Shown here: positions 4,313 to 48,950 of the stretch, piece after piece | Layout of the letters: each line of letters starts with the position of its first letter | Numbering within the stretch: the first letter of the stretch is position 1 | From: Mustelus asterias | Taxonomy: Eukaryota | DNA: 64,000 nt | NCBI RefSeq assembly: GCF_964213995.1 | Contig: NC_135829.1 | Location: forward strand, 17,670,001-17,734,000 | Direction of reading: 5' to 3' | Position numbers and translations under genes: made by a program | The notes under the pieces: model-generated | Database searches by the model: none | Told to the model about the DNA's origin: nothing | What the model saw: the letters and a program-made list of their open reading frames with translations, nothing else

Positions 4313-4367
4313 CAGCAACATGTTGGAAGAGAAGAAAAAGACCCACAAACAAAGCACCGAGTGCCAT
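4313..4367 (-). CDS. Gene B exon 1, paralogous signal peptide MALGALFVGLFLLFQHVA(G); rest of the gene lies beyond the left edge
   Basis: Same 55-nt length and phase-1 donor (GCTG|GTAAGG) as gene A exon 1; 14/19 identical residues; similar 5' UTR. Confidence 0.8.
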
Positions 4368-18196: not shown

Positions 18197-18447
18197 TCAG
18201 TTGTCCTCCATTTTAGAATAAATCGGATTTTCTTCCATTTCTAGCGGGCAATGCTTTGGGTCATTTTCCTCCAGGCGGGGCTGTGTCACCGTGTTTCCAA
18301 GACTCTCAGTCCCAGGGTAGCTGATCAAAGAGTAAGTCTGGTCATTGGATGAAGCAATGGGATCTTCCTCTTTCAGCGATGTGTGGTCTTTGGGCTCAAT
18401 GGCTGAAGAGCTTTCAACCTGACTCCCATGGTTCAGGTGATCTTTGC
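18197..18447 (-). CDS. Gene A exon 10 (terminal), QTYSLI and ENPIYSKM motifs, TGA stop
   Basis: Acceptor ctctcttaatatctag|; open frame of 83 codons including the stop at 18199-18197; missed by the ORF track. Confidence 0.8.
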
Positions 18448-21400
18448 CTAGATATTAAGAGAGATTGTGTTTAATGAGGATTAGCAGCAATCGGGGACAA
18501 ACAATTATAGCGGACTGTTTCACTACATGGGATAAATGTTCAGGAGTTTTAGAGCAGTTACAGGGTTGGATTATATTGAAAGAATGAAACCACTTACATT
18601 TCCCTCCCTGGGTTTCAGTTTTGTCTCCATTACTTAGGAAAATAGAAAATGAAACAGTAAAAATTGAGTCACAAAAGATTCAAACAATATTAAACAGCTC
18701 CAAGTGGAGACTTGATTCAACCATTTTTTCCATGGGATCTGGATTTGAATCTAGCCCAGACTGAAATTCTCTCATTCATATTGTTTCTCTCATTGTTCTT
18801 CTTATCTCTCTGATCCTCCCTGTCTGTCCTTCACATTGTCTCTCTGATCCTCCCTCCCTCCCTGTGTGTATCTCTCCTTGTCTTTCTGTGTCTCTCTCAT
18901 TGACTCCATCACGAGGATGACCAACGCCCAGTGCAAGGGGTGGGTGTGCCTCTAAACCTCAGTGGGGTGGGGTGGGGTGAACTACACACAATCCATTCAG
19001 CTACAGGAGGACCCAAAACCAGGCCAGGCCAAATGCATGCTCAGAAACGACCTGTAAAAGAAGAAACTGGGGACAAAAGACGTCCCAGGAAGGCCTGAGC
19101 CACAGGGACACAGGGTGAAAGGCCAACCTACGGGACAGTCCTGAAAATGCAGGATGGTTGGTCAGCCTGGTCAGGATTCTCCAGCTCTGCCCATGGCAGG
19201 AAACATCACGGGTAGGACGGAAAATTTGACGGACCAGCAAAAGGTCCATTGACTTAGAGTGGAACAAGTGGTGGCAGAGGCTGGGGATTGGATGGGTAGA
19301 AGAACAAAAGAGAAGTTCTGTCATTGAAGGAAGGATAGGCGAGATTAAATGACGAAAGGTTCCAGGGTAAAAAGTCAAAAGTCGTGGTAAAGGGACGTAA
19401 AGAAACAAAAGCTGTGTCTAGAAGAGGTGTGAATGACAGGAAAGCAACCATCTGAATGTAAAGTAAAGAAACTGAGAAAGAAGTAAGGGAAAAACAAACA
19501 AAGCTTCAAAAAGAAAGATGCAAAACAAAATGAGGGCAGAGATTATCATTTAAAATTGTTGCCCAGAAGACTGTAAAGTTGAAATTGAGGTGCGGTTCCT
19601 TGTACTTGTATTGAATTTCATTGGAACTTTGCCACAAGCCAAGGACAGAGCAAGGTGGAGAATTAAAATGTCAAGTAACTGGGAGCGTGGGGTCACGCTC
19701 ACGGACTGAATTGGAGTGTTCCACAAAATGGTCACCCAGTCTGTACTTAGTCTCCCCAAAGTAGAGGAGGCAATGTAATAAGCAGCAAATACAAAAACTA
19801 ACTACATTTTGTAAAAACGGGTAAATCGCTGTTCCACTTGGAATGAGTGTTTGGGGCCTTGAATGGTGAGAAAGGAGGAGATAGAAGGTCACAAGTTGTA
19901 TCTCTCATTCTTGCACTGAAAGGGAGTGTTGGGGGTAACCAAGGGGTGAGCCAGGTTCTTGTGAAGGGAACAGTCTCTTTAGAGTGCTGAAAGGGGAGGG
20001 GATGGGTAGATGTGTTTGGTGATTGGAGGTAGTGGCAATGGAGGACCATCCATTGACTATGGAGACTGGTGGGGTGGGAGATGAGGATATGGGATTCTGA
20101 AAGGAAGGGGAAGGGGAGGGAGCAGAAGTGCAGGCAAAAGTACAAACAGGGCCAAGTACCTTGCTGTGGTGAACCATTGTTGGTTCCCACCAGGTAGTGC
20201 TGAGCCATGGTCTGACCAGTACTATGAGTCTGTATATATGTTACTGTTGGGGTTAGGGTTGGGCTGTTCTACCTGTTAATATTGTTGTTATGGTACACCC
20301 CAGTCGGCTCCGCCTCCTGGGAGAGGTATAAAGGTCACTGCTCTGCCTGGTGACCCTTTAGTCTGGGATCGTGTACTGTATATGGTAGCTCTGTTATTGT
20401 TGGCAATAAAAGCCTTTATTTCCCGAGTACATCACGCCTCTCGTGTGTTATATCACGCATCAATTTTCTTGCCAACAAGTAAATTCTTTTTTTTTGAAAA
20501 AAAAAACGACGAAGAAAACATGGAGCAAATGCTTAAATCCGAACGGTTTACGTTGGACCCACGTGCGGCGGGCGCTTCGAACACTTTCGACCACTGGTTG
20601 AAGTGTTTCCAGGATTACCTCGACGCCTCCACAGCGGTCAATGACGACGCCGACAGACTCCGGGTCCTCCACGCGAGGGTAAGCGACGCTGTATACCTGG
20701 TGATCCGTGGGGCCGCCGACTACAAAGGGGCCCTCGAGCTTCTCAAGAAGCGATACAACAAACCGCCGAACGAGATGCATGCTCGATATCTTCTAGCCAC
20801 TCGACGGCGGCAGCCCGGCGAAACGACGGAACAGTACGCGTGCGAGCTTCAACAGCTAGCCAGAGCCTGCAACTGCAAGGCAGTGTCGGCAGACCAGTAC
20901 ATGAACGACCTAGCTCGAGATGCGTTCGTGGCGGGAATCGGCTCGTCGTACATCCGTCTTCGCATGTTGGAGCAAGGTAACCTCGATCTCACTAAATCCA
21001 TAGAGTTAGCTGACGCTCTAGAAACGGCCTCCAAAAGTCTGGCGATGTACCCCGACGACCACGTGGAGACAGCGTGGCAGGGGCAGTCGCAGACTCCACT
21101 TCATTCAGCGGGACCGAAAAACTGCGCGATCGCGTTCCCAGCCTCGGACCTGACGACGGCAGCAGCTCCAGGTGGCCCACGGTGTTACTTCTGTCGGGGG
21201 GTGAAACACCCTCGGCAGCGATGTCCAGCTAAAGCGGTGTTGTGCTCCGGCTGCGGCAAGAAGGGGCACTATTCCAAGGTATGCCGGTCCAAACTTCCAT
21301 CCAAGAACAGCAGTGCGGCGTGTGACTCCCCAGAGCCGGCCTCCTTGTCTTCTGCATCTTCAAGGTCTTCCGCAACGTGCGATTCCAGGACGTCGCCATT

Positions 21401-24400
21401 CCGGACGACGGAGTCGCAAGACACGTGCGACCTGCAGGGGCCGCAGGTTTTGGCGCCATCATCCACATGCAACCTATGGGGTCAGCCATTTTGGTCGGCA
21501 CCGACCGCAAATGACCAGCAGGGGTCGTCATCAACCATCTCAGCCACCTGCAGTTGCGCCCACGAACCAACGGTGGCGTCGATCATCCTGGACCAGGCCA
21601 AGCCTCACAGACTCGACAAGTCCATGATGGACATACAGGTAAACAAATGCCCGATTTATTGTTTGTTTGACAGCGGGAGCACGGAGAGCTTCATTCACCC
21701 TGACACCGTGAAGGGGTGTGGTCTCCAGATTCGGACTGTCAAGCAGACAATTTCGATGGCGTCAAGGTCCCGGTCTGTCACTGTGCTAGGGAGCTGCGTG
21801 GTAAATCTGACGGTGCAGGACACAGTCTACGAGAACTTCAAGCTCCTTGTGTTACCGCACCTTTGCGCGCCAATACTCCTAGGACTAGATTTTATGGTCC
21901 ACTTAAAGAGTGTAACCCTGCAGTACGGTGGGCCACTCCCTCCGCTTTCAGTGGGAGACCCGCAGCCTCTAAATTGCCCAACGCGCTCCACATGTAGTCT
22001 CTCAACGCTTAGGATTACCACACCCTCCCTATTCCAGAATCTTGTGCCAGGCTGCAAGCCCATCGCAACAAAGAGCAGGCGTTACAGCGCTGAAGATCGG
22101 ATCTTCATTCGATCTGAAGATCAGCGGCTCCTCAAGGAAGGGATCATCCAACCTAGCGCTAGTCCTTGGAGAGCGCAAGTCGTGGTGGTTAAGAATGGGA
22201 ACAAACCCCAGATGGTCATAGACTATAGTCAGACCATTAACAGATACACGCAGCTGGATGCGTATCCCCTCCCGCGCATATCTGACATGGTCAATCAGAT
22301 TGCGCAGTACCGGGTGTTCTCCACCATCGACTTAAAATCTGCTTACCACCAACTCCCCATTCGCCCAGAGGACCGACAATACACGGCCTTTGAGGCGGAT
22401 GGTCGCCTGTATCAATTTTTAAGGGTTCCTTTTGGTGTCACGAATGGGGTCTCGGTCTTCCAGCGTGCTATGGACCGAATGGTGGACCAGAACGGACTGC
22501 GGGCTACCTTCCCGTACCTGGACAACGTCACCATCTGCGGCCATGACCAGCAGGACCACGATACCAACCTTCTTAGATTCTTATGCACTGCATCTCGCCT
22601 GAATCTGACCTACAACAGGGAGAAGTGTGCATTCCGCACGCGCCGCCTAGCTATCCTTGGATACGTGGTGGAAAATGGGGTCCTTGGCCCTGATCCAGAC
22701 CGTATGCGTCCCCTCCTCGAACTTCCCCTGCCCACTAGCGTCAAAGCACTGAGAAGATGCTTCGGCTTCTTCTCATACTACGCACAGTGGGTTCCCAATT
22801 ACGCGGACAAAGCCCGTCCGCTCATCAAGTCTACCTCTTTTCCCCTAGCAACAGAGGCTCGATTAGCCTTTGCAAGAATAAAAGCCAACATCGTGAAAGC
22901 CACGATGCACGCTATCGATGAGTCCATCCCCTTCCAGGTGGAGAGTGATGCATCTGATTTCGCCCTGGCCGCCACACTTAACCAGGCGGGCAGGCCCGTC
23001 GCCTTTTTCTCTCGCACCCTCCAAGGCCCTGAAATTCGACATTCGGTGGTGGAAAAGGAGGCCCAGGCCATTGTGGAGGCCGTTCGGCATTGGCGCCATT
23101 ACTTGGCGGGCAAACGGTTCACTCTGCTCACGGACCAGCGGTCCGTGGCGTTCATGTTCAACAACACGTTACGGGGTAAGATCAAGAATGATAAGATCTT
23201 GAGGTGGAGAATCGAACTCTCCACCTACAATTATGATATCATGTATCGTCCAGGGAATCTCAACGAGCCCTCGGATGCCCTGTCGCGCTAGTATGCAGGA
23301 GAATCGATTGCAGGCTCTCCACAATGACCTCTGCCATCCGGGGGTCACTCGGCTCTACCACTTCATAAAAGCCCGGAATCTACCCTACTCGGTGGAGGAT
23401 GTCAGGTCCATAACCAGAAGCTGCCGGGTATGTGCGGAATGCAAACCGCACTTCTACCGACCTGACAGGGCACAACTCGTTAAGGCCACTCGTCCCTTCG
23501 AAAGACTGAGTGTGGACTTAAAGGGCCCCCTTCCCTCGACAGATCGGAACGTGTACTTCCTCAATGTGGTTGATGAGTACTCACGATTCCCTTTTGTCAT
23601 TCCCTGTTCTGATATGACCGCTGCCACGGTTATCAAGGCATTCCGTGATCTTTTCACCCTGTTCGGTTACCCCTGTTACATCCACAGCGATAGGGGCTCG
23701 TCGTTCATGAGCGATGACTTGAGGCAATACCTGCTCTCATATGGGATTGCCTCTAGTAGAACCACGAGCTACAACCCAAGGGGTAACGGACAGGTCGAAC
23801 GAGAGAATGCTACAGTCTGGAAGGCTGTCTTATTGGCGTTGAGGTCTAAAGGTCTTCCAGTCTCTCGTTGGCAAGAGGTACTCCCTGATGCGCTCCACTC
23901 CATACGCTCACTCCTGTGTACGGCAACCAACGCTACTCCTCATGAGAGAATGTTTTCATTCCTTAGGAAGTCTTCCTCTGGGACCTCATTACCGTCTTGG
24001 TTGACGTACTCAGGACCTGTCCTCCTGCGGCGGCATGTTAGGACCCGCAAGTCCGACCCTTTGGTTGAACAGGTCCATCTCCTCCACGCCGACCCTCAGT
24101 ATGCCTACGTGGCATATCCTGGCGGGCGAGAGGACACGGTCTCGATTCGAGATCTGGCGCCAGCAGGGGGCTTGGAAACCCCTGTCGCTCCCACATCTAC
24201 TGTTACGGACCCCCCAACCATTATTTCCCCTCCTGACACGGCGCGGGCAGTATCGGGACCACCACTTAACCCTCTTACTCCCATGTACAGCTTGCCTGAG
24301 TCCAGGAGATGGTCGCCACTTCAAGGCGTGCCCGAGTTCAGCGGATTGTCACCACCTCGGGGTCTACCGGCTCGTGAGGCACTGGAGGAGTCGCTGGACA

Positions 24401-27400
24401 TCGCCTTGGAGAGAACGTCACCGCGATTGCCTGAACCGGTGTTATCGCCGGTGTTGAGGAGGACACAACGATGGTGCAGTCCCCCTGACCGTTTGAACTT
24501 ATAGACAAATGGACTATTTTTCTGTGCTTTGTACCCCGCCGGCCTTTGTTTTCAAAGGAGGGGTGAATGTGGTGAACCATTGTTGGTTCCCACCAGGTAG
24601 TGCTGAGCCATGGTCTGACCAGTACTATGAGTCTGTATATATGTTACTGTTGGGGTTAGGGTTGGGCTGTTCTACCTGTTAATATTGTTGTTATGGTACA
24701 CCCCAGTCGGCTCCGCCTCCTGGGAGAGGTATAAAGGTCACTGCTCTGCCTGGTGACCCTTTAGTCTGGGATCGTGTACTGTATATGGTAGCTCTGTTAT
24801 TGTTGGCAATAAAAGCCTTTATTTCCCGAGTACATCCAGCCTCTCGTGTGTTATATCGCGCATCACTTGCCAACCACTGTGGGACATGAGAATAGGAAGG
24901 AAGGTGCAAGCATGATGAAATCCTCGGCTGAGGGAAAAGGAAGGCATATCAAAAATGCTTATATTAAACATCAGCTTCTTCAAAAAATGAGATGGCAATG
25001 GAGAACATGGGAAAATGAACTAGAATCTTTACATGAAATGGAGTGGGAGAAAATGTAGTTAGATAATTGTCAAGTCTGTGTGAATATTGGCATCCCCAGA
25101 AATTGAGTCAGCAAAGTCAAGGAAGGGAAGCAAAGAGTCAGAGACGGACCAAGTGAAAATGAGAGAAGGGTGGAAATTGGATGCAAAGCCAATGACAATT
25201 CAGAGAGCAGGGTGAGACCTGGAAATGTTGCTGACATTGTTATCAATGTACAAGAAAAAGAGATGAGGGAGAAAGCCTAAGGAGGATGGGAGTAAAGATT
25301 ATTTCACATTGATTCTCTCACTATCTCTTTACCTGGCTCTCTCTTGCCCAGTTTCTTTGTTTAATTCTCTCTCTCGTTCTGTCTTTATGTCCGTCTCTCT
25401 TTTCTCGCTGTCTCTCTCCCTTTCTCGCTGTCTCTCTCTCTCCCTTTCTCGCTGTCTCTCTCTCTCCCTTTCTCGCTGTCTCTCTCCCTTTCTCGCTATC
25501 TCTCTCACTTTCTCGCTGCCTCTTTCTCGCTGTCTCTCTCACTTTCTCGCTGCCTCTTTCTCGCTGTCTCTCTCCCTTTCTCACTGTCTCTCTCCCTTTC
25601 TCGCTATCTCTCTCCCTTGCTCGCTGTCTCTCTCCCTTGCTCGCTGTCTCTCTCCCTTTCTCGCTGTCTCTCTCTCTTTCTCATTGTCTCTCTCCCTTTC
25701 TCACTGTCTCTCTCCCTTTCTCACTGTCTCTCTCCCCTTCTCACTGTCTCTCTCCCCTTCTCACTGTCTCTCTCCCTTTCTCACTGTCTCTCTCTCCCTT
25801 TCTCACTGTCTCTCTCTCCCTTTCTCACTGTCTCTCTCCCTTTCTCGCTGTCTCTCTCTCTCGCTGTCTCTCTCTCCCTTTCTCGCTGTCTCTCTCCCTT
25901 TCTCGCTGTCTCTCTCTCTCCCTTTCTCACTGCCTCTCTCCCTTTCTCGCTGTCTCTCTCTCTCCCTTTCTTGCTGTCTCTCTCCCTTTCTCGCTATCTC
26001 TCTCCCTTTCTCGCTGTCTCTCTCCCTTTCTCGCTGTCTCTCTCCCTTTCTCGCTATCTCTCTCCCTTTCTCGCTATCTCTCTCCCGTTCTCGCTGTCTC
26101 TCTCACTTTCTCGCTGTCTCTCTCACTTTCTCGCTGTCTCTCTCACTTTCTCGCTGTCTCTCTCACTTTCTCACTTTCTCTCTCCCTTTCTCACTGTCTC
26201 TCTCCCTTTCACACTGTCTCTCTCTCCCTTTCTCGCTGTCTCTCTCCCTTTCTCACTGTCTCTCTCCCTTTCTCACTGTCTCTCTCCCCTTCTCACTCTC
26301 TCTCTCCCCTTCTCACTCTCTCTCTCTCCTTCTCACTCTCTCTCTCCCCTTCTCACTCTTTCTCTCCCTTTCTCGCTGTCTCTCTCCCTTTCTCGCTGTC
26401 TCTCTCCCTTTCTCGCTGTCTCTCTCCCTTTCTCGCTGTCTCTCTCCCTTTCTCACTGTCGCTCCCGTTCTCGCTGTCTCTCCCTTTCTCACTGTCTCCC
26501 TGTAACGTGAGCAGTCCTCTCTGCAATGAGTTTTCACAATCAAGTTCCAATCCAGTTCCTCGCCCAGAACTGTTCATCGTTCAGTAAACCAGTTGGAGTC
26601 AATTGATGATTATGATTAAAATAAACCAAAATATTATTCTGACAAAAGTTTAAAAAAATAACTTCATACAGGGTAAAGAGAGAAGCTATTCTGATGTTGA
26701 GATAATGGGACACTATCAAATCAGGACGTGAGTACTTTACACAATCTCTGGCCATTCTATAGCTGATTTACAATTGTTTGGTTGTGAGATTGGAAGTAAA
26801 ATCAGAACATGGCTTGCATTCTGTGATGGAATAGATTCATATTTTAGGATCTTTATTTAATTCAAGTCTAAACTATTGATAAAATCCCTCTTTCTATCTC
26901 TCCCTCTCGTTCTCTCTCTGTCCATTTGTTTTTCTTTGTCTTTATCACAGTCTCTAACTCTCTCTTTCCCTCCAAGGATCCTTGGTGCAATAAGCTTGAT
27001 TGTCTAGATTCAGAGTGGTAAGAAAGTCCAACAATTTTAGATCATAATTTGCCTTCTCTTGTTTATTTCTTAGCTCCTCTACTTTGCATTCAGATGGTTG
27101 CTTTCTTGCCATTTACACCTCTTCTAGACACATCTTTTGTTTCTTCTATTGTCCAATCACCACTCCCTTTGACTTTTTACCCTAAAAGTTTTGGTCATTT
27201 AATTCTTGCTGCCATGGGGAGTGGTTGAAGCTAACAGTGTAGATACATTTAAGGGGAAGCTGGACAAGTACATGAGGGGGAAGTGAATAGAGGGTTACAA
27301 TGATAGATCAAGACGAGGAAAGATGGGATGAGGCTTTAGTAAAGTATTAAGAGCAGCTGGTTGCCCTGACAGGTCTGTTCCTATGTCACATATCCGATGT

Positions 27401-30400
27401 AATCCTATGTAATTTGTAGTTTATACAGATCAATGCGCAAATTGGGACTTTTACTCAAATAGGTGGTCTGTGAGAAATGCATGTCCAATTTCCATGCCCC
27501 CACCCCCTCCCCCCAAAGTTGTGGTTGTATGGAACATGGTTAAGAGAGTGCAGAGAAAGCTTTGTACTATGCCTAATCTTTACAGCCTGATCTTCAGTGC
27601 CCCAACCAATACAGGCTGGTCAAAGTGGAACAGTGTCCATTCATCAGCATGAGTTCCTTCACTACATTGACTATTGTCTAATCCTCCATTCCCCAACAAA
27701 AATCGTTGTTGCCAGTACTGGAAGGGATTCTGAAATCCTATTTACCCTTGAACTGATTCTTTGATCAGACAGTACACATGCTCTGTGGAGGCAGAGGTTG
27801 AGTGGGCGCCCTGTCCTTCTCCAGGCCCTAGCTGGCTCTTTGTCATTGGAACTGTGGTCACTGCGTACGCAACATGCTCATTTTCATCTGTCTGTTCCCT
27901 GCTGGGAAACACCGAGTATGGTAAACCTAGAAAGAAGGATTGGAACACAAGATCTGGTTTTAGTTTTAACTCTCCAGATGATAGGTTCGGTAGACCTGGG
28001 TAGTAATTCTGGTCACTTACATTCATCTTCCTGTGTCAGTTGCACATCACCGTCCCTACAGTTATAAAAAAAAGATCTATAAATATTTCAATAATTGGAC
28101 AAAACCATGCAGAAATGTCCAAATACTGAGTGAATCCTCTGCCTACCTCTGTCCTGGTGCTGAGGATCCTTCGCAAATGTAACAAGATTGGAAAGGCAAA
28201 GTTAAAAATCTTTGTAAGGAGTCTGTATTAAATACAATTTAAGACTTAGATTCAGCTTTTTAAAACTCTGACTTACCTTTGGCCATTTGTCGTTTTCTTC
28301 TGACTATGCAAATTACTCCAACAATGCAAATGAGCACAACCACGCACACTATGCCGATAATCACAGGTATAATTTTATGGTTTGAATCTGCAGAGAAGAA
28401 GCAACAGTAAATTCAGGATGTACAATCCTGTATGACGGATCATTCCAGTTAGAATCTAGAATAGTCAATGGTGAAGGAAGGAAATTGAACCAATTTACAA
28501 CGGGTACAAACTGTACAAACAGACCCAGAATCTCTCAGCTGGAACCCCTGACATTGAATGATTCATGTTGCAGATTGTCTTACTTTTTAGAGTATCAAGA
28601 AGCAGAGGTGATTTTAAGTGTTTGTACCGTTGGATATTAGAAATGAGTTATAGATTTACATGAGTTTAACTTAGTGTTCCTGTATAAGGAAAGGTAAACC
28701 TCCAGTTAGATTCATATTAAACAATGTTTGCTTGTATGGAGGGATTTTTTAGAATCATAGAATCCTACAGTGCAGAAGGAAGCCATTTGGCCCAGTGAGT
28801 CTGCACCAAACACAATCCCACCTTATTCCCATAACCCCACATATTTATCCTGCTAATTCCCCTAACACTAGAGTCTATTTATCATGGCCAATCAACCTAA
28901 CCCGCAAATCTTTGGATTGTGGGAGCACCCGGAGGAAACCCATCCAGACACTGGGAAAATGTGCAAACTCCACACAGACAGGAATTGAACACAGGTTCTT
29001 GGTGCTGTGAGGCAGCAGTGCTAACCACTGTGCCACCATTTCAGTTCAAACTGTGGTAACATTATGCTAAGAGAGTTTACAGCATGTAAAATAGATAAGA
29101 GCTTAGGGAAAGAATTAGATGTTGTTTAGCAACCAAGGTTTACTTATAGGGGAAGAGACCTTACTGTGTTCTTAGTTTAACTGAGCCAGAGTAGAAGGAG
29201 CTTAGCAGTGAGAGAGGGAACATCTCTCACTGCTTTGCCAGAAGAAAAGCCATATAATAGAGTAACGGGCAAGGAAGCAAGTGTCAGAAATCTAAAAACA
29301 GCCAGTTAAGGAGGATGAAGAGAAGTCTCCAGGAAGTCTGAAGTTAAAGGAACAGAGGAAACTGGAACAAGGTTACAGACAGAGTTGAGAAGCTGAAGCG
29401 TTTGCTGGTGAAAAACAGAGATATCTGAAATTATTTCAAAGTTTTTGAGATTTACTATAGCCTGGAAAGTGATAGTTGAAGCAATTGTGAAGTAATTAGT
29501 CACTGGATCTTTTAATGTTTGTGTGAAAGCTTGAAAGCATTCAAGACAAAGGAACATTGAAAGGAGAGCTATAAAACCTGGAAGTGGATCCTTGTTGGGG
29601 AAAAGTGAAAGAAATAATTGTTTGAAAGAAGATTCTAAAGTGTGTCTTTTTGAGAGTGGGGTTTGGAATCACTCATGTGGAAGTCAGAGTCCAGTAAGAT
29701 CAGTTGGCTCATGGTGTGAGAATCATCTGGGGAGATTTGAGAAGAAGTCCACAGAAGTTCACTTGGGTGGCGTCTGCCACTTGGTTTCAGAATGGAGTGT
29801 GTTTGACCACAGTTAGCCTGTGGTTTAAAGGGATTGTGTGTTTACTGAGACCATTATAGCATAAGATATATTTTGTAACCTCTGTCATCCTTAAAATCCA
29901 TGTATATTTGTGAAGATAAGTGGGAATGAAGGAGTATTGTATCATAGTCAAACTTTTCATGTTCAATAAATGTTTTTTTTGTTGTTAAAAGGTAATTGTT
30001 AGTCCTGTGACTCTCTTCATTCCCATTTTCTAAAAGATATGTAAAAGTTATGGTCTTTTAAGCCAAGGTTCCATTTGGAATCATCCGGTCCAGTAGTAAC
30101 ATACACAGAGATACACTCACTGTTAGTCACTGGAGATATTCCAGATGTTGAGGTGAGGGTGTCTGGGGATTCACTACTTGAGATTGGACTCCTTGTTACC
30201 TGGTCTGAGAAACATAATTTCCCAGTTAGAATCTGGAATGATAAATGACGAACGATGGAAATTGAGCCAGTTTACAACAGGTACAAAATCCCTCAGCTGG
30301 AATTATTGATATTAAATGATTTAAATCATATCGTGCATTGTCTGACTTACCTTCATTATTTGTAGGAGTTGCACTGCTGGTCACTGGAGATATTCCAGAT

Positions 30401-33400
30401 GTTGAGGTGTGAGTGTCTGGAGAGTCTGCACTTTTTGTCACACTGAGGGAGATGTTTGCTGTAATCTTCCAGACAGGTTTCCCTGAAGCCTGACCGTGTA
30501 CAACACAGAGATAGCTCCCAGTGTCCAACTCCTTCACTGAGTGAATAGTGAGGTTGTGAGTCTGGATTTTATTTGTTGGATTGTTTGAGCTTTGGTTGGA
30601 GATTCTTTGTGATGACTCTTTATCCACACAGCAGTGTGTGTTAGAATGTGGGCTATAACCCTCAATATGAACAGAGTGCAGACACTTGTTGATATTTCCA
30701 GATATGATCCAAAGCAGAGTGAAGGGCAGAGATTTTCTATTCTCAAACTGGCAGGGTAAAGTCACATTCTCTCCCTCTGCTACAGTCAGTGACGAGGAAG
30801 TTTCAACAGCAGAAAATACTTCATCCGAATCTAGAAACAATATTGAAAAGAATAATTTTACTCAAATAATCTCCAACGCGGTACTTTGTCAAAGGGTTTC
30901 CAAAAGTCCATGTTAACTACATTCACTGCATTTCTCCATCTACTTTGTCTGTTACCTCCTCAACAGTTTATCAAGAACATCGGGCAGAATTTTTCGTTCT
31001 TTTGTGGCCTGCCAGCTCCACTGCCGGCTTTTCCCACCATAATTTTTGATACTTGTTCAAAATAAATTCAGGAGGTGGGTCCCAAATGTCACGCTGGCGG
31101 GGCAGCCACTGATTGAACCTGTCCCTCCAGCAACCTCAGACTTCAAGAGACCCGGCATCTTTCAAACCAAACCAATAAAAAAAAGAGGGGATCCCACCGT
31201 CCCCCACCCCCCCCCCCCCCCCTCCACGGACATGGGGAGCCCGCTCCCTCCCATCGCCCTCCACTTCCACGCAGACGCCCCTTCCCAGCGATGCCCCCAT
31301 CACCAGGGAATACCATCTCCCACAGACCTCCCCATTGGAAGCCCACTCTCTCCGGCAATTCCCTCTGGCACTGCAGTGCCAAGGGGCAGTGTCAGGAGAT
31401 GCTGCCAGGACAGTTTCCAGGCATGACCCTCTACCCCCTTGGGGCTGTACTTCCTGTGCACCCAAGGTGGGTTCTCTTCGCTAGGTCCCTGTTTGTGCCA
31501 TGGTGGCACAGCGGTTAGAACTGCTGCCTCACAGCGCCAGGGACCCGGGTTCGATTCCCGGCTTGGGTCACTGTCTGTGCGGAGTCTGCACGTTCTCCCC
31601 GTGTCTGCGTGGGTTTCCTCTGGGTGCTCTGGTTTCCTCTCATAGTCTGTTTAGGTGCATTGGCCGTGCTAAATTCTCCGTCAGTGTACCCGAACAGGTG
31701 CCACACAGGGATTTTCGCAGGGGATTTTCACAGTAACTTCATTGCAGTATTAATGTAAGCCTACCTGTGACTGTAATAAATAAACTTTAAAACTTTAAAC
31801 TGTTTGTCAAAAGCTGTTATAAACCCCACTGAAGCGAGGGGGGAAATTGAAGGGTAAGGGGACAATAGAGTGGGAAGCCCGTTAATGAGATTAAAATGTG
31901 TGGCAATGGGATTCCCGACCTTTCATGGCAGGAACTAACATCACAGACGGGAAATCCCGACTGCGTAAAAGCCATTTGGGGACTCCCGTTGATTCTCCGG
32001 CCCCACCGCCATTCCCACTGACCAAAAACGGGGGAAAATCCTGGCCATCATCTTTGGAATCTGTCGGTTGCGTCTCAATTTTTACTCTTTATTTACATGC
32101 TTGATAATTTCATCTCCATAAAGAATCTATAATTGTCTCGAATGGCAGCTATTTGTCCTAATGCCTCCCCTAATATCTCAGCTTAAATCTTCCCAATGTC
32201 CCCCTGTGATAATTCCCCCGATATCTCCAGTTCACTCACCGTCCGGGTTTATCACAAAGAACAAGTTGTGGTTTTCACATCCCTCCCCTGTCAGGGTTTT
32301 CCAGTTTGGACATTTTGATGATTCTGTGGAATCCTGAACCGTGCAGGTAAATATCATCGAATCATCACATAGCATCACATCGAATGTCAGTGAATTCATT
32401 TCACTTTCATTTCTTTTGCTTGTTTGACACTGCAGCTTCTCTTTCTGTTTCTCATGATCGATATTTTCACAATCCTGCATTTTCTTCTCTTCTGTCTCAC
32501 ATTGTATTTTCTCAATTTCTATTTCAGCACTGAAATCCCGAATGCTGCACAATGTTCCGACATTCCCAGCACCAGTGGGTGTGTTGCATTGCAGAGTGGT
32601 GACATCTCCTGATCCTCGAAAATGGAGATAGGTGGATCCTGCAGGGATAAGGACAGAATTGGACGGAGATAAATAACATTCCATACAGGAAAGATAATTA
32701 AACATTAATGTTCATCAAAACCTCGCGCAGTAAATGAACAATTGTGATTTTTGTTAGTCCACACAATGAGCTGGTCCTGGACCAAATTGACATGGGGAAG
32801 GGTAAGGTATTGGAGGTGTTGGCAGCCTTAAAAGTGAATAAATCTCCAGATCCTGTTGAATTGTGCCGTAGGCTGCTGTAGGATGCAAGAGAGGAGATTG
32901 CAGGGGCTCTGACCCAAATTTTCAATTTCTCTCTGGCCACGGGGAGGTGCCAGATGACTGGAGAACAGCTAATGTGGTTCCCCTATTTAAGAAGGGTTGT
33001 CGAGATAAACCAGGGAACTACAGACCAGCGAGTCTCACAGCAGTGAATAGAAAACTATTGGAGGAACTTCTGAAGGAGAGCATCTATTTCCACTCAGGGA
33101 TAGTCAGCATGGCTTCGTCAGAGGGAGGCCTAACAAATTTGATTGAATTTTGACCATGTGTGTAGATAAGGGTAGCGCAATCGGTTAGGTTTATATGGAT
33201 TTCAGCAAAGCTTTGAAAAGGTCCCACATGGGAGACTTGTAAAGAAGGCAAATGCACATGGGATACAGGGTAATTTGATAAAGTGGATTCAAAATTGGTT
33301 TAGCAGTAGAAGTTAGAGAGTGATGGCAGAAGGTTGCTTCAGTGACTGGAAGCCAGTTTCCAGTGTCATACCGCAGGGATCTGTGCTGGGCCACCTATTA

Positions 33401-36400: not shown

Positions 36401-39400
36401 TACATGTACAAGGTAAGACTAGACTACAAATGCAACTGCTTCTTTTGACTCCCTGGCTCCAACTGCAAGTCCCTCCTTGACCCGTGATCTGCGTCCTTCT
36501 GCCATTTGGTTCAGTTTCCAACCAGACAATCCGTACGCAGCAGAAAAAAATCCCAACTGAGCCACAGGAATCTCATGTGTCCTGAGTTTTCTGCCTGATG
36601 ATTATTTGAACAGCATGCTGGGGCTGACAAACAGGATATAACACTGCTCCTCTCATCTCTCACTCAAACCGCATGGACAAATGTGTCATTCATCTTCAGA
36701 GCTCATCTCACCCCTTATTCCTCCAGCAACCTCACTGTATCTGAAGACCTCACAATCTTCCCCTCCTCCAATTTCTCATTTCTTAATGGCTACCCAACTT
36801 GCTCACACTAACTGCTCTGCTGTCAAAACATTTTCCTTATTCTCCTTGTTTCATCTTTCCATTCAGTGACTCTTCAACTTGAATTACATCCACTTGCACC
36901 TTCAACTCTCTTGCTCTCTCTGCTCCAACTTTCTGACTTCCTGTCCTCACTATTCTTGCCCTTCACATGCTGCTCAGTATTTCAACCAATTATGCACCCA
37001 TCTCCCTCCCCCCTCCTTATTCAAATGTCCTCAGTATCATATCAGAGGAACAAGACCATCTTTGTCAAAAAATAATAACAATATTAGAGAGTCAAGAGAC
37101 AAAATGGAGAGAGGAACTTAAAACAATCACTATAGTAATAGTGTGGCCCCTTCGCGGGCCACGTGACCAAGCTGGAACCAATGGAGTGTGAGTGTGCACG
37201 TCTCAGGAGCGAGGACACGTGTCTCTAAGGCTGGAATTCAGCAGAACGAGTTGAGGAAGTTGTTGAGAGCAGACCTGTGGTGTTGTGTTGCAAGTCCTTT
37301 AGTTGTAAATGGTTTATTCTTGTTGATGGGCCGAGTGGCCTTCTTCTGTACTGTAGGGATTCTGTGATTCTACATCGAGTTATCACAACTATCAACATAG
37401 AAAATCTAGCTAAAGGCCAACAAGTCCCCTAAACATATGAACGCACAAATTAGGAGCAGAGGTAGGTCAATCAGTCCCTCGAGCCTGCTCCACAATTTAA
37501 TAGGACCTTAGCTTATCTGATTGTGGCCTTTACTTTCCTCCCTACCCCTTATACCAGTGGTTCCCAAACTTTTTTCACTGGGCCGCACTTTCGGAATAAA
37601 AATTTGCTCGTGCCACACCGAATTTTTTAGTGATAAGAAATAGATTCAAAAACAAAAAAAAACAACTCCTAGCAGTGCTTGATTCATAACATAGAACACA
37701 ACTACTTTATAATACGATCATGGGACATCCAGAAAGTATAAAACAATCACTTTGGAAAAATATCTAATCCATGTTTAAATGTTTCTTTGATTGTCCTTGA
37801 ATCTTCCCGCCAGACTTGCCATCCTCTCTCGCCGCACCAGTGTGGCGCACTGCACCCTTTGGGAACCACTGCCTTATACCCTTTGACTGCCTTGTCAGTC
37901 AAGAATATATCTGACTCAGCAATAAACATAACTTCACTGCTGTCTGGGAAGAAATTGATGTGGAGATGCCGGCGTTGGACTGGGGTAAACACAGTAAGAA
38001 GTTTAACAACACCAGGTTAAAGTCCAACAGGTTTATTTGGTAGCAAAAGCCACACAAGCTTTCGGAGCTCTAAGCCCCTTCTTCAGGTGAGTGGGAATTC
38101 TGTTCACCAACAGAGCTTATAAAGACACAGACTCAATTTACATGAATAATGGTTGGAATGCGAATACTTACAACTAATCAAGTCTTTAAGAAACAAAACA
38201 ATGTGAGTGGAGAGAGCATCAAGACAGGCTAAAAAGATGTGTATTGTCTCCAGACAAGACAGCCAGTGAAACTCTGCAGGTCCACGCAACTGTGGGAGTT
38301 ACAAATAGTGTGACATGAACCCAATATCCCGGTTGAGGCCGTCCTCGTGTGTGCGGAACTTGGCTATCAGTTTCTGCTCAGCGACTCTGCGCTGACTAAT
38401 GACTCACTGAGAGAAATATTTTCTCCTCATTGCTGTCTTCATAGAAGTATCATTGAATCTCTATAGTACAGAAGGAGGCCATTTGGTCCATCGAGTCTGC
38501 ACTGACTCTCTGACAGAGCACCTTACCCAGGTCCTATCCTGTAACTCCACGTATTTACCCCATTAATCTACTTAACCTACACATTCTGGGACACTAAGGG
38601 GCAATTTAGCTTGGCCAATCAACCTAATCTACACATCTTTGGACTGTGAGAGAAAACCAGAGCACCCAGAGGGAACCCACGCAGACATAGGGAGAATGTG
38701 CAAACTCCAACAAGCAATCACTCAAAGCTGGAATTCCCAGATCCCTGGCACTGTGAGGCAGCCATGCTAACCACTGTGCCACCAAGCCACCCACAATGCC
38801 TTGAATGGGAGATCCTTATTTTTAAACTGTGTCTCCTAGGTCCAGTCCCCCTGTTAAGAGGAAGCATCCTCTCAGCATCCAGAGAACGATCTGTGGAGTA
38901 TGGGCCAGAACACTTCCTCTATGTCAGTCTGCTGCCTCTGAACCCAATAGTCTGTATCCTAGGGTCTTAAGAGAAGTGGCTGCAGAGATAATGCATTGGT
39001 TATAACCTTCCAAAATTCCCAAGATTTTGGAAAGGTCCTAGCAGATTGAAAAAACACAAATATACAATCCCTACTAATGCCACAAAGGGAGTTAGAAAGA
39101 AGACACTATAGGCCAATTCGCTTAACATCTGTCATTCCTACGAAACTCATCTCCAAACTCTGTGGTCTGGGCCTTGGCTCCTCCCTCTGTGACTAGATCC
39201 TGAACTTCCTAACTCATAGATCACAATCAGTAAGGATAGGCAATAACACCTCCTCCACAATCATCCTCAACACCGGTGCCCCTCAAAGCTGTGTTCTCAG
39301 CCCCCTACTATACTCCTTATGCACCTATGACTGTGTGGCCAAATTCCCCTCCAACTCGATTTTCAAGTTTGCTGATGACACCACTGTAGTGGGTCGGATC

Positions 39401-42400
39401 TCAAACAATGACGAGACAGAGTACAGGAATGAGATAGAGAATCTGGTGAATTGGTACGGCGACAATAAACTCTCCCTCAATGTCAACAAAACGAAGGAGA
39501 TTGTCATCGACTTCAGGAAGGGTAGTGGAGAACATGCCCCTGTCTACATCAATGGGGGCGAAGTAGAAAGGGTCGAGAGCTTCAGGTTTTTAGGTGTCCA
39601 GATCACCAACACCTGTCCTGGTCCCCCCATTCCGATACTATAGTTAAAAAAGCCCACCAACACCTCTACTTTCTCAGAAGACTAAGGAAATTTGGCATGT
39701 CAGCTACGACTCTCACCAACTTTTACATATGCACCATAGAAAGCATTTTTTCTGGTTGTATCACAGCTTGGTATGGGCTCCTGCTGTGTCCAAGACCGCA
39801 AGAAACTACAAAAGATCATGAATGTAGCCCAATCCGTCACACAAACCAGCCTTCCATCCATTGAATCTGTCGACACTTCCCGCTGCCTCGGAAAAGCAGC
39901 CAGCATAATTAAGGACCCCACGCACCCGGACATTCTCTCTTCCACCTTCTTCCAGCAGGAAAAAGAGACAAAAGTCTGAGATCATGTACCAACTGACTCA
40001 AGAACAGCGTCTTCCCTGCTGCCATCAGACTTTTGAATGGACCTATCTTGCATTAAGTTGATTTATCTCTACACCCTAGCTATGACTGTAACACTACATT
40101 CTGCACTCTTACGTTTCCTTCTCTATGAACGGTATGCTTTGTCTGTATATAGCGTGCAAGAAACAATACTTTTCACTGTATACTAATACATGTGACAATA
40201 ATAAATCAAATCAAATCAAATGCGACAACCCATTATACAGGAAGTAGTAGCTGGAAATTTAGAAAACCATAACATAATCAAAACTTGTACACAAATCACT
40301 AAATATTAGCATACAGATACAGCAAAAATTAGGAAGGCAAATAGAATGTTGTCCTTTATTGCAAGAGGGATACAGTATATAATTGTTACAACTGTACAGG
40401 GTATTGGTGAGACTTACCCTAGAATATTGTGTACGGTTCTATTCTCCTTACTTAAGCAGCATTGGAGAAAGTTCAGAGAAGGTTTGCTAGTTTGATTTCT
40501 GGGACGAAGGGTTATCTTATGTGGAAAGGTTGACTAGGTACCTGTAGAGTTTAGAAGAATGTGAGGTGATCTTATTGAAGCATGTAAGATTCTGGGGTGC
40601 TTGATGGAGTAGGTGCTAGAGGATGTTTCCCTTTATGAAGGAAGAATCTAGAACTAGGGGGATGTTTCAATATAAGGGGTCTCCCATTTAGGACAGAGAA
40701 AGATTTTCTTCCCTCAGAGGGTCATTAATCTTTGGAATTCTTTACCCCAGGGTGTAATGGAGACTGGATCATTGAATATATTCATGGCTGAGCTTTGACT
40801 GACAAGCAAGTCAAGGTTTGTGGGCGGGTAGGTAGGAAAGTGAAGTTGAGGCCATGATAGATCAGCAATGATCTTATTGCATAATACAGCAGGATCGAGG
40901 GGCTGAATGGCCCAATTCTTTTCTTATCTCTTATGTTGTGTCTCTCCAAAACCCAGTTTAGGACATAGAACAGTACAGCACAGAACAGGCCCTTCGGCCC
41001 ACGATGTTGTGCCGTGTTTGTTGACACTATTCTTACAGAGATCCATTTGTACCTGTGTGGTGAACCATTGTTGGTTCCCACCAGGTAGTGCTGAGCCATG
41101 GTCTGGCCAGTACTATGAGTCTGTAGATATGTTACTGTTGGGGTTAGGGTTGGGCTGTTCTACCTGTTAATATAGTCCTTATGGTACACCCCAGTCGGCT
41201 CCGCCTCCTGGGAGAGGTATAAAGGTCACTGCTCTGCCTGGTGACCCTTTAGTCTGGGATCGTATACTGTATATGGTAGCTCTGTTATTGTTGGCAATAA
41301 AAGCCTTTATTTCCCGAGTACATCCAGCCTCTCGTGTGTTATATCGCGCATCAATTTTATTGCCAACAAGTAAATTCTTTTTTTTTGAAAAAAATACGAC
41401 AAAAGAAAACATGGAGCAAATGCTTAAACCCGAACGGCTTACGTTGGACCCACGTGCGGCGGGAGCATCGAACACTTTCGACCACTGGTTGAAGTGTTTC
41501 CAAGATTACCTCGACGCCTCCACAGCGGTCACCGACGACGCCGACAGACTCCGGGTCCTCCACGCGAGGGTAAGCGACGCTGTATACCTAGCGATCCGTG
41601 GGGCCACCGACTACAAAGGGGCCCTCGAGCTTCTCAAGAAGCGATACAACAAACCGCCGAATGAGATCCATGCTCGATACCTTCTAGCCACTCGACGGCG
41701 GCAGCCCGGCGAAACGACGTAACAGTACGCGTGCGAGCTTCAGCAGCGAGCCAGAGCCTGCAACTGCAAGTCAGTGTCGGCAGACCAGTACATGAACGAC
41801 CTAGCTCGAGATGCGTTCGTGGCGGGAATTGGCTCGTCGTACATCCGCCTCCGGCAGTTGGAACAAGGTAACCTCGATCTCACTAAAACCATAGAGTTAG
41901 CTGACGCTCTAGAAACGGCCTCCAAAAGTCTGGCGATGTACCCCGACGACCACATGGAGACAGCGTGGCAGGGGCAGTCGCAGACTCCACTTCATTCAGC
42001 GGGACCGAAAAACTGCGCGATTGCGTTCCCAGCCTCGGACCTGACGACGGCAGCAGCTCCAGGTGGCCCGCGGTGTTACTTCTGTGGGGGGGGCGAAACA
42101 CCCTCGGCAGCGATGTCCAGCTAAAGCGGTATTGTGCTCCGCCTGCGGCAAGAAGGGGCACTATTCCAAGGTATGCCTGTCCAAACTTCCATCCAAGAAC
42201 AGCAGTGCGGCATGTGACTCCCCGGAGCCGGCCTCCTTGTCTTCTGCATCTTCAAGGTCTTCTACCACGTGCGATTCCAGGACGTCGCCATTCCGAACGA
42301 TGGAGTCGCAAGACACGTGCGACCTGAAGGGGCCGCAGGTTTTGGCGCCATCGTCCACGTGCGACCTATGGGGACAGCCATTTTGGTCGGCACTGACCGT

Positions 42401-48400: not shown

Positions 48401-48950
48401 AGTAGTCTGATCACTCCCTAATCACGCAGTCTGACCCCTCAATCACATAGTCTGGCCCCCATCACTAACCTGGCCCTCAATCATGTCGTCCACATAGTCT
48501 GACCCCCCATCACAAACTCTGATCTCTTCCCCGTCACACAGTCCAACCCACCCAATCATCGAGTCTGATCTCCACCCTCACACAGTCTGAGCCCTACGAC
48601 ACACTCTCATCCCCCCATTTGCACATTCTGACCCCCCCTCCCCCCCACCCCCGCCCCCCCCAATCCCCCCTCCCCCCCAACCCCCCCCTCCCCACCCCCC
48701 CACACCCCACCCCCCCTTCCCCACCCCCCCTCCCCACCACCCCCCCACACCCTACCACCCCCCTCCCCCCCCACCCCTCCCCCACCCCTCCCCCCACCCC
48801 CCCCACCCCCCCCACCCCTCCCCCCCTCCCCCCACCCCTCCCCCCACCCCTCCCCCCTCCCCCCCTACCCCTCCCCCCCCCCCCCCACCCCTCACCTGTA
48901 GCATGATGGAACAGAAGCAAAAGACCCACAGATAGAGCACCGAGTGCCAT
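18197..48950 (-). CDS. Gene A (whole span): 10-exon type I membrane IgSF receptor, 550 aa (leader, Cys-rich Ig-like D1, V-set D2, S/T/P stalk, TM, Tyr-motif tail); uncharacterised family
   Basis: Manual exon chain: 48950-48896, 32638-32240, 30830-30351, 30204-30121, 28387-28277, 28168-28147, 28055-28021, 27926-27746, 18632-18598, 18447-18197. Lengths 55+399+480+84+111+22+35+181+35+251=1653 nt, open throughout. All introns GT..AG with matching phases 1,1,1,1,1,2,1,2,1. Confidence 0.85.
18598..18632 (-). CDS. Gene A exon 9, 35-nt cytoplasmic exon (NGDKTETQGGK)
   Basis: Acceptor ttttctattttcctaag|, donor AAT|GTAAGT, phase 2-1; resembles exon 7. Confidence 0.75.
20165..24865 (+). mobile_element. 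Full-length Ty3/Gypsy LTR retrotransposon, copy 1 (Mag-like double zinc knuckle)
   Basis: LTRs 20165-20462 and 24568-24865 (298 bp, TG..CA); TSD CTTGC; PPT aaaggaggggtgaa; domain order gag-PR-RT-RH-IN. Confidence 0.97.
20520..24504 (+). pseudogene. Gypsy copy 1 gag-pol, open from gag through RNase H, with integrase frameshifted by an 11-bp deletion near 23288
   Basis: CYFC..H..C/CSGC..GH..C, FDSGS, YLDN, ESDAS, HHCC, SVD/HSDRG/GQVER. Copy 2 retains tggaacatgcg at the junction. Confidence 0.9.
25360..26500. repeat. Pyrimidine-rich minisatellite, about 20-bp unit TTTCTCGCTGTCTCTCTCCC
   Basis: Direct reading of the tandem units. Confidence 0.95.
27746..27926 (-). CDS. Gene A exon 8, cytoplasmic Tyr motifs LPYSVF, VAYAVT, HVYCLI
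   Basis: Acceptor ccttctttctag|, donor AAGG|GTAAAT, 181 nt, phase 1-2. Confidence 0.8.
28021..28055 (-). CDS. Gene A exon 7, 35-nt cytoplasmic exon (DGDVQLTQEDE)
   Basis: Acceptor ttttataactgtag|, donor AAT|GTAAGT, phase 2-1. Confidence 0.75.
28147..28168 (-). CDS. Gene A exon 6, 22-nt cytoplasmic microexon (GSSAPGQR)
   Basis: Pyrimidine tract then AAG|, donor AG|GTAGGC. The phase 1->2 switch is required to keep exon 7 open. Confidence 0.7.
28277..28387 (-). CDS. Gene A exon 5, transmembrane helix (IIPVIIGIVCVVVLICIVGVICIV-RRKR)
   Basis: Acceptor ttcttctctgcag|, donor AAAG|GTAAGT, 111 nt, phase 1-1; hydrophobic run followed by a basic stop-transfer motif. Confidence 0.9.
28750..29037 (-). 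mobile_element. HE1-like SINE
   Basis: Head ggcacagtggttagcactgctgcctcacagc on the minus strand. Confidence 0.85.
30121..30204 (-). CDS. Gene A exon 4, Ser/Thr/Pro stalk (DQVTRSPISSSESPDTLTSTSGISPVTN)
   Basis: Acceptor tgtttctcag|, donor AACA|GTGAGT, 84 nt, phase 1-1; repeats SPDTxTSTSGISPVT of exon 3. Confidence 0.75.
30351..30830 (-). CDS. Gene A exon 3, V-set Ig domain D2 plus start of stalk
   Basis: Acceptor ttgtttctag|, donor GAAG|GTAAGT, 480 nt, phase 1-1. EGENVTLPC, LLWI, NLTIHSVKELDTGSYLC V-set hallmarks. Confidence 0.92.
30982..32046. mobile_element. Harbinger-like non-autonomous element with a nested SINE (about 31500-31795, plus)
   Basis: Imperfect TIRs gggcagaattttt / gaaaatcctggcc; 3-bp TSD ATC. 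Confidence 0.55.
32240..32638 (-). CDS. Gene A exon 2, atypical Ig-like domain D1 (9 Cys, no core Trp)
   Basis: Acceptor ccttatccctgcag|, donor GACG|GTGAGT, 399 nt, phase 1-1. GDVTTLQC (B-strand-like) and LCDDSMIFTC (F-strand-like). Confidence 0.8.
32770..33920 (+). mobile_element. CR1-type LINE fragment with internal deletion
   Basis: PDDWRTANVVPLFKKG..PGNYRP; FTRMLSGM..; (tatga)n-like tail. Confidence 0.9.
34080..36230 (-). mobile_element. Nested stack: old LINE 3' end > HE1-like SINE (about 34168-35841) > CR1 (34226-35548)
   Basis: SINE halves rejoin as gagtctgca|ccgaccacaatcc; tgccttc is duplicated around the SINE; CR1 RT motifs QHGF, DFSKAFD, GVPQGSVLGP, KFADD. Confidence 0.85.
37555..37871. 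mobile_element. hAT-family MITE
   Basis: 14-bp TIRs cagtggttcccaaa / tttgggaaccactg; perfect 8-bp TSD CCTTATAC. Confidence 0.92.
37956..38395 (-). mobile_element. Penelope 3' end/pseudo-LTR with hammerhead motif at 38053-38089
   Basis: Homologous to 13500-13906; CAC-CUGAAGA..GAAA-GCU-U-GUG. Confidence 0.85.
38440..38785 (-). mobile_element. HE1-like SINE
   Basis: Similarity to the other copies. Confidence 0.8.
39140..40220 (+). mobile_element. Rex1/Babar-type LINE 3' fragment inserted in a CR1 remnant (about 38960-40930)
   Basis: GAPQ, KFADDTTVVGRI, (caaat)n tail. Confidence 0.88.
41056..45760 (+). mobile_element. Full-length Ty3/Gypsy LTR retrotransposon, copy 2 (decayed ORF)
   Basis: LTRs 41056-41353 and 45463-45760; TSD ACCTG; PPT; stops at about 41720 and 43002; frameshifts at about 42090 and 44870. 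Confidence 0.97.
46350..47270 (+). mobile_element. Old LINE RT/3' fragment
   Basis: QNSILGPIILSCF..MQQDLNNIQA remnant. Confidence 0.55.
47560..48015 (+). mobile_element. Old SINE, DeuSINE/SacSINE-like
   Basis: tRNA-like head tggctcagtg..tgggttt; tail ctatataaatgtaagtctttc. Confidence 0.5.
48630..48890. repeat. C-rich low-complexity tract (G-runs on the minus/transcript strand)
   Basis: Direct reading; abuts the exon 1 donor. Confidence 0.9.
48896..48950 (-). CDS. Gene A exon 1, signal peptide MALGALSVGLLLLFHHAT(G)
   Basis: ATG, hydrophobic leader, phase-1 donor ACAG|GTGAGG; close paralog at 4313-4367. Confidence 0.85.

Follow-up and report, generated by a model that had tools for sequence, protein, structure and literature searches.

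A cysteine-rich, probably immunoglobulin-derived outer domain in a candidate paired receptor of sharks

The 64,000-nucleotide stretch of the Mustelus asterias genome analyzed here (contig NC_135829.1, positions 17,670,001 to 17,734,000; hereafter the window) contains the gene LOC144480561, whose second exon encodes the cysteine (Cys)-rich domain that is the subject of this work. The RefSeq model of the gene (isoform X1, labelled uncharacterized) is the exact translation of 10 exons of the window and has 550 residues. These exons span positions 48950 to 18197 on the minus strand; all internal joints are AG/GT and there is no internal stop. The encoded protein comprises, in this order, a signal peptide, the N-terminal domain D1, the V-set domain D2, a serine/threonine (Ser/Thr) stalk, an uncharged helix and a 180-residue tail with six tyrosines (Tyr). 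It is a shark type I membrane protein, and D1 is its outermost domain.

The gene, its exons and its transcripts

The exons are as follows:
48896..48950, minus strand: exon 1, 55 coding nt with the start codon and the signal peptide, phase 1
32240..32638, minus strand: exon 2, D1, degenerate immunoglobulin (Ig)-like N-terminal domain with nine Cys, residues 20-151 (RefSeq identity, conservation, spliced contigs)
30351..30830, minus strand: exon 3, encoding the V-set Ig domain D2, whose five Cys are invariant, and Ser/Thr-rich stalk (Pfam V-set, AlphaFold, VIA)
30121..30204, minus strand: exon 4, second Ser/Thr-rich stalk exon, missing in one annotated isoform
28277..28387, minus strand: exon 5, uncharged transmembrane helix and basic stop-transfer
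28147..28168, minus strand: exon 6, small cytoplasmic exon
28021..28055, minus strand: exon 7, small cytoplasmic exon
27746..27926, minus strand: exon 8, three Tyr motifs, LPYSVF, VAYAVT and HVYCLI
18598..18632, minus strand: exon 9, small cytoplasmic exon
18197..18447, minus strand: exon 10, QTYSLI and ENPIY motifs, stop codon

The D1 exon is 399 nt long, with a pyrimidine-rich acceptor (...cag/GA) at 32638 and a donor (ACG/gtgagt) at 32240; its frame is open, with phase 1 at both ends. A reading made earlier from the sequence only had placed an N-terminal domain at 32240..32638. These coordinates are exact for the minus strand, every peptide quoted in that reading is present, and the exon directly follows the leader exon in the translated model. 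The same reading had proposed Ig-like Cys spacing, nine Cys and a missing core tryptophan (Trp), all of which the translated exon bears out. Nine Cys alone are not above chance, as 6 of the 45 stop-free frames of at least 132 codons in the window also reach this number. The D1 exon is lifted above chance by the conservation of its Cys in sharks, by its identity to the annotated model and by spliced contigs.

The transcript check covered positions 27700-32800 in 4 of 15 listed runs (three samples from three studies), a region outside which the leader-to-D1 joint lies. In each of the four runs, one contig ran from the end of D1 at 32240 directly into the beginning of D2 at 30830, with the intron removed. 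The whole of D1 with 129 upstream letters, D2 and tail exon 8 stood together on one contig, while a second joined part of D1 to D2 and to the long-tail exon 8. None of the contigs is recorded as RNA, and since they diverge by about 2-8% from the window, they show this splicing in relatives, where the D1 exon is thus not absent from transcripts. Some annotated isoforms of Pristiophorus (P0006, P0007, P0009, P0045 and P0010) skip the D2 or the membrane exon, which predicts one-domain or soluble forms.

Cysteines, variable surface and fold of the N-terminal domain

Homologs were found in 13 shark species of 11 genera. Only shark proteins were returned by a search part of which needs shared five-residue words, so that distant ray or chimaera relatives may be missed. 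A search of NCBIfam returned membrane-helix noise only. The D1 alignment has 24 rows, of which 22 are complete and 7 come from one genus; three models without D1, a doubled Heptranchias model and most isoform copies were left out. The nine Cys of D1 are located at full-protein positions 36, 49, 65, 75, 89, 109, 117, 128 and 139, with 80 residues between C36 and C117. The C-strand position is Leu48 instead of Trp, and the sole Trp, W131, lies in the FG region. The parts of the domain are distributed in the exon as follows:
32586..32588, minus strand: C36, putative B-strand Cys, Cys in 22/22 rows
32547..32552, minus strand: L48-C49, putative C-strand core position, Trp-Trp in Heptranchias
32394..32546, minus strand: charged, hypervariable C-to-D stretch, residues 50-100, with C65, C75, C89 and S92
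32343..32369, minus strand: C109 (in Mustelus only) to C117 (putative F-strand Cys of the D-S-x-x-F-x-C motif)
32277..32312, minus strand: C128-W131-C139, conserved FG-region loop, both Cys in 24/24 rows

Most D1 Cys are kept in at least 20 of 22-24 rows: C49 in 21/22, C65 in 22/23, C75 in 20/23, C89 in 22/23 and C117 in 21/24. The usual set of the family is C36, C49, C65, C75, C89, C92, C117, C128 and C139. LOC144480561 has lost C92 (S92; Cys in 21/23 rows) and gained C109, which it shares with the tandem twin described below. Among the 22 complete rows, D1 has nine Cys in 15, eight in three, seven in two and ten in two. In Scyliorhinus torazame (P0041, P0042 and P0048), D1 is 7-14 residues shorter, with part of the putative E strand gone and all nine Cys kept. 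The Heptranchias short-form model P0033 has a doubled ectodomain (D1-D2-stalk-D1-D2-stalk), which could have arisen by genuine duplication or by the fusion of two gene models; the automatic name of this model, 'serine-rich adhesin-like', comes from the stalk alone.

D2 has five Cys (positions 178, 201, 218, 219 and 260), the same five in 22/22 rows. It matches the Pfam V-set model with an E-value of 4.7e-9 (36.9 bits against a cut-off of 26). Its AlphaFold model, with a predicted local distance difference test (pLDDT) score of 48-86 per block, matches V domains with a VIA Z of 13.3 and a root-mean-square deviation of 2.1-3.8 over 111-123 residues. D2 is, as modelled, a proper V domain. C201 lies in the predicted strand 200-206, and C218 and C219 lie in the loop before strand 228-232 (pLDDT 48-68).

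Pairs among the D1 Cys are suggested by single co-loss events: C49 is lost with C92 in Heptranchias and C75 with C89 in Hemiscyllium, one event each and thus thin, which points to C49-C92 and C75-C89 as the family pairing. If C36-C117 and C128-C139 are also paired, C65 is left as the likeliest odd Cys. As C92 is lost in LOC144480561, the bond pattern must differ there locally. The odd number of Cys in both domains had been taken in the sequence-only reading to indicate an interdomain or interchain disulfide. The parity itself holds, since D1 is odd in 17/22 complete rows and D2 in 22/22, whereas the bond is plausible only, as the nine Cys of LOC144480561 are not the nine of the family. An intrachain bond from the odd D1 Cys, likely C65, to C201, C218 or C219, which would give a rigid head, is a tentative possibility to which we give less than even odds. 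The two odd counts sum to an even number, and C65 is kept or replaced nearby in 23/23 rows, the substitute being a nearby Cys in Stegostoma. However, D2 is skipped in four annotated Pristiophorus isoforms, in which D1 joins the stalk directly, a single genus contributes 7 of the 22 rows as near-copies, and C218 and C219 are adjacent, so that other pairings fit equally. Additionally, the odd exposed Cys of the solved CD200R V domain carries a free cysteine and links neither domains nor chains (excerpt of PMC3664923). A D1-D2 bond is compatible with the reading that we favor for the whole protein and is not exclusive of it. Apart from this bond and a covalent homodimer, considered below, the remaining probability goes to free or capped thiols or to local re-pairing.

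The charged part of D1 had been described as an insert. This description fails, since the B-to-F spacing is 80 residues in D1 and 81 in D2; there is no insertion relative to the family, and the charged stretch is the long C-to-D region of the family. The mean identity over 11 genera is 34% for residues 50-100, in comparison with 55% for strands A-C, 69% for E-F, 59% for FG/G, 69% for D2 and 65% for the tail, and the net charge of the C-to-D stretch ranges from -5 to +6 across genera. A Cys-tethered FG loop resembling complementarity-determining region (CDR) 3 had also been proposed. The Cys pair is invariant, but the loop is not CDR3-like in its variability, given its 59% identity against 34% in the C-to-D region. 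Because the C-to-D region is the most variable part while the FG pair is invariant, we take this region as the candidate surface for binding and regard the FG loop as apparently structural. A match to a bovine ultralong CDR H3 (PDB 5ijv, E 0.67) is not significant and was rejected as evidence.

Several observations indicate that D1 is quite probably derived from an Ig domain. The B/F-strand Cys pair is present, with C36-C117 as the presumed bond, and the strand-B anchors are in register (G at -7, L at -2 and C). The C-strand core Trp is missing, with Leu48 in 21/22 rows. The sevengill Heptranchias, which has Trp-Trp at positions 48-49 in place of Leu-Cys, is the only row with Trp at +12; this suggests that the core Trp was lost rather than lacking from the start. 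The E-F motif is present in the degenerate form SLTF-x-V...D/N-S-x-x-F-T-C and aligns with the E-F strands of titin, LRIG1 and CEA. In a comparison of the D1 profile with PDB, three sequences reached E<=10; all three are Ig domains and align on strands D-E-F (best titin, E 0.038). Three of eight D1 orthologs match Ig-clan Pfam models below the curated cut-offs, the best match being to ig (E 0.0038, 17.9 bits against a cut-off of 21.8), and the four best Pfam models for D1 by E-value are Ig. As in the Ig superfamily (IgSF), D1 occupies one phase-1/phase-1 exon. Among the language-model (Atlas) neighbors of Heptranchias D1, 10/10 of those with a family share the Ig clan (scores 0.90-0.91).

Other results weigh against this derivation. 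These Atlas neighbors share 155-164 features, which is under the same-family mark of 170, and a third of shuffled proteins also give a one-clan list. Mustelus D1 itself matches no Pfam family at E<=10 and has no usable Atlas match. The D1-D2 profile comparison with hhalign was not above 100 column shuffles (score 10, shuffle mean 12), for which reason a likeness of the two domains after the F-strand Cys, seen by eye, was not counted. AlphaFold gave D1 alone (24 rows) a pLDDT of 30.7, and 22-39 per block within the full chain; with this low-confidence model, Foldseek and VIA (best E 1.7, best Z 2.8) were uninformative on the fold. Finally, the putative F-strand C117 is Phe in 3/24 rows, all from Pristiophorus (P0005, P0008 and P0009). 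These rows keep the B-strand Cys, and other paralogs of the same species keep C117.

On this evidence, D1 might no longer be, or might never have been, an Ig sandwich, and could be a small disulfide-held domain of another fold with a D-E-F motif arisen by chance. AlphaFold fails on D1 and yet folds D2 from the same alignment, and the missing curated Pfam match, the absence of profile similarity to D2 and the loss of the F-strand Cys fit this alternative. We consider it unlikely, since the Ig anchor residues stand in the right order and spacing, Heptranchias has the Trp, all three PDB matches and the four best Pfam models are Ig, and the shallow alignment alone explains the failed fold. Of the divergent V-like domain proposed in the sequence-only reading, the Ig origin is therefore likely (Heptranchias Trp, weak profile matches and Ig-clan neighbors), although an Ig sandwich was not obtained (AlphaFold pLDDT 31 and about 25 for D1).

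The short-tailed twin and predicted signaling

A second gene of the family begins in the window:
4313..4367, minus strand: leader exon of the tandem short-tailed paralog LOC144480428, the remainder of which lies beyond the window start

This leader is located 13.8 kb downstream of LOC144480561, on the same strand. LOC144480428 has an ectodomain 92-93% identical to that of LOC144480561, a polar helix residue and a tail of 18 residues. The automatic gene models include long as well as short forms in seven genera, and the within-genus identity of the long and short D1 is 0.90-0.99 in 9/9 pairs. Where the long forms have V in the lower part of the helix, the short forms have D, N or H (7/7 genera). 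The short forms also have Arg at the helix top in 6/7 genera (all except Carcharodon) and a membrane-proximal Cys in 7/7, and they lack tail Tyr in 6/7. In a tree of 24 ectodomains, the long and short forms group by genus, with eight label changes forced by well-supported branches. The helix segments, in contrast, group by type (0.64 short-short and 0.70 long-long, against 0.42 short-long within a genus). Homogenized binding domains with conserved, opposite signaling parts are the pattern of paired opposing receptors (excerpt of PMC3210942), and Arg at the helix top and FxxD/NT are assembly sites for FcR-gamma/zeta (excerpt of PMC13107469). By analogy with such systems, the long and short twins likely act as inhibitory and activating immune receptors, respectively.

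The long tails keep the motifs VAY(A/S)V, HVYC and NPIY, the last in 12/12. The details of both forms also tell against the assignment of opposing signals. The tail of LOC144480561 has no strict immunoreceptor tyrosine-based inhibitory (ITIM), switch (ITSM) or activation (ITAM) motif. Under the consensus (S/I/V/L)xYxx(I/V/L) (excerpt of PMC12151841), strict ITIMs occur in 7/15 long forms and not in LOC144480561, which has several half-consensus motifs; 'inhibitory' is thus a predicted role. The short helix has D/N/H-G without the full FxxDT motif, Carcharodon lacks the Arg, and both forms are known as automatic gene models only.

Alternatively, the long tail could serve as a scaffold for docking or sorting (NPxY, YxxM), with co-stimulation or internalization as its effect and the short form as a decoy. 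YxxM is a PI3K-type motif, and the last tail motif reads YxxM in three genera. Together with the 8/15 long forms without a strict ITIM and the invariant NPIY, since NPxY often serves trafficking (excerpt of PMC8007030), this keeps a non-inhibitory long form in consideration, but we regard it as rather improbable. The tail has four ITIM-like motifs with one consensus end each, the homogenized ectodomains and type-specific helices fit opposing signals, and CD200R inhibits without any ITIM according to the excerpt of PMC8007030.

The odd Cys could also form a covalent homodimer of the long receptor. A membrane-proximal stalk Cys is a usual site of a dimer bond, and the conserved odd counts of both domains and the extra Cys of the short forms agree with such a dimer; it is nevertheless quite doubtful, as this Cys is missing from the long forms, LOC144480561 included, and the odd parity is also explained by an intrachain bond or free thiols.

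Taken together, we favor, with a probability of roughly 55%, the reading that D1 is a degenerate V-like Ig domain whose extra Cys staple a fast-evolving predicted ligand surface, and that the protein is the inhibitory member of a paired immune receptor. D1 would adopt the Ig sandwich fold, held at its core by C36-C117, and C49-C92, C75-C89 and C128-C139 would be the additional disulfides of the family. The C-to-D stretch would contact a fast-changing ligand; ligand binding would lead to phosphorylation of the tail Tyr, and the recruitment of SH2/PTB proteins would damp activation. The twin would signal via an adaptor of the FcR-gamma/zeta type, and gene conversion would keep both ectodomains alike, so that both see the same ligand.

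A further-reaching version, which we hold to be unlikely, is a shark-wide paired family in which the core Trp was traded for a lattice of at least four disulfides, D1 is covalently locked to the V domain, and both twins follow a rapidly evolving ligand, from a pathogen or from self, by means of a hypervariable 50-residue surface; no described family would have a counterpart. If true, this would represent a germline, disulfide-scaffolded recognition module. Cartilaginous fish are the oldest lineage to possess adaptive immunity, and only a few innate or natural killer-type receptor families have been reported from them. A compact pair of genes that is retained in 11 shark genera, in which the ectodomains are homogenized and the membrane segments specific to each type, is a clean candidate for an ancient system of opposing-signal receptors. 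From D1 one would also learn how much decay an Ig domain tolerates, to the point of having no core Trp and an optional F-strand Cys, once extra disulfides take over.

The window also contains repeats. Two 4.7-kb long terminal repeat (LTR) retrotransposon copies, 95.7% identical, lie at 20165-24874 and 41056-45761 within receptor-gene introns, on the strand opposite to the gene; their LTRs of about 300 bp are 97-98% alike, and the integrase frame matches Pfam rve (E 7.6e-18). The 16-kb first intron contains reverse transcriptase fragments (Pfam RVT_1) of the long interspersed nuclear element type at 35588-34302 (minus) and 39197-39640 (plus), and a Harbinger-like transposase fragment (DDE_Tnp_4) is located upstream of the gene at 52952-52344 (minus). 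A duplicated segment of about 2.3 kb (1-2337 and 4682-7367, about 90% identity) flanks the leader exon of the paralog. Additionally, about 55 copies of a 20-bp C/T-rich unit form a tandem array at 25401-26498, and a 260-bp C-rich tract (48632-48891) lies right after the leader-exon donor site.

Comparison with known receptor families

The paired IgSF receptors PIR, CEACAM1/3, Siglec-11/16 and CD300A/C resemble the shark family in their tandem genes with near-identical ectodomains (excerpt of PMC3210942) and in pairing a member that has a neutral helix and a long, Tyr-bearing tail with one whose helix is polar and whose tail is short. In contrast to these receptors, with which no sequence kinship was found, the shark family has mostly non-consensus tail motifs and a D1 that is far more degenerate and Cys-rich.

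CD200R is likewise paired, and its V domain has an extra Cys pair from strand C' to the C''D loop and an odd Cys (excerpt of PMC3664923), at positions similar to those modelled for the extra Cys of D2; its tail has NPxY and little or no ITIM (excerpt of PMC8007030). The shark family could be a remodelled offshoot of the CD200R lineage. According to the model, the extra Cys of D2 are placed in strand C' and in the loop that precedes strand D, the site of the extra CD200R bond; an acidic-xx-PY-xxxxx-R stretch, chosen post hoc, is found in 6/12 long tails (3 of 20000 shuffles); the long tails have NPxY; and one Atlas neighbor set is CD200R-like. However, the CD200R tail motif EEDExxPYxxYxxKxNxxY, as given in the excerpt of PMC8007030, is matched by 0/12 long tails, and NPIY lies 135-149 residues from the acidic-PY stretch. 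The architecture is a degenerate V plus V, not the V plus C2 of CD200R, and the tail has 160-190 residues with five or more Tyr. Among the 50-60 top matches listed for D2 in PDB, by sequence or by fold, CD200R does not appear, an absence that is not decisive. An offshoot of this kind seems improbable, and the CD200R-like traits (D2 Cys positions, acidic-PY stretch and NPxY) are a lead only.

CD300 and skate MDIR are multigene families of activating and inhibitory IgSF receptors, known from cartilaginous fish, with a Cys right after the C-strand core position, as in L/W48-C49 of D1. They differ in having four Cys against nine in D1 and five in D2, MDIR being compared by description only, and the three proteins that were checked for a YWCR or WC motif, as defined in the excerpt of PMC3031540, have none in either domain. 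The teleost NITRs also combine two Ig domains, extra conserved Cys, and inhibitory and activating forms (excerpt of PMC2442602). According to the same excerpt, their I domain has six Cys, against five in D2, and they have a J-like FGxGTxLxV motif, of which even [FW]GxG is present in 0/3 shark proteins; NITRs are reported from bony fish only.

The modelled D2 has PD-1 as one of its best fold matches, with a Foldseek E of 1.3e-7 that ties with those of CAR, TCR alpha, Siglec and PILR. PD-1 and CD28 have one domain against two in the shark protein, the PD-1 motifs (I/V)(D/E)Y(A/G)(E/V)L and (T/V)EYATI are absent from the listed shark Tyr contexts, and shark PD-1 is a different, described gene (excerpt of PMC12151841). 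In the bovine ultralong CDR H3, as in D1, a loop containing two Cys comes after the F-strand Cys. D1, in contrast, is encoded by a single germline exon with no sign of rearrangement, and its loop is conserved across sharks and not diversified. Cys-tethered loops are also found in the shark VNAR.

In the open literature, we found no paper naming any of six of the gene identifiers and none on this shark family, a search outside which subscription papers lie, including the original MDIR description. The surprise is moderate, since other vertebrates have well-known systems of this kind and RefSeq already lists the gene, labelled 'uncharacterized'. By analogy, we would describe these proteins as an uncharacterized shark family that appears to work like a known kind of system, the paired IgSF immune receptor.

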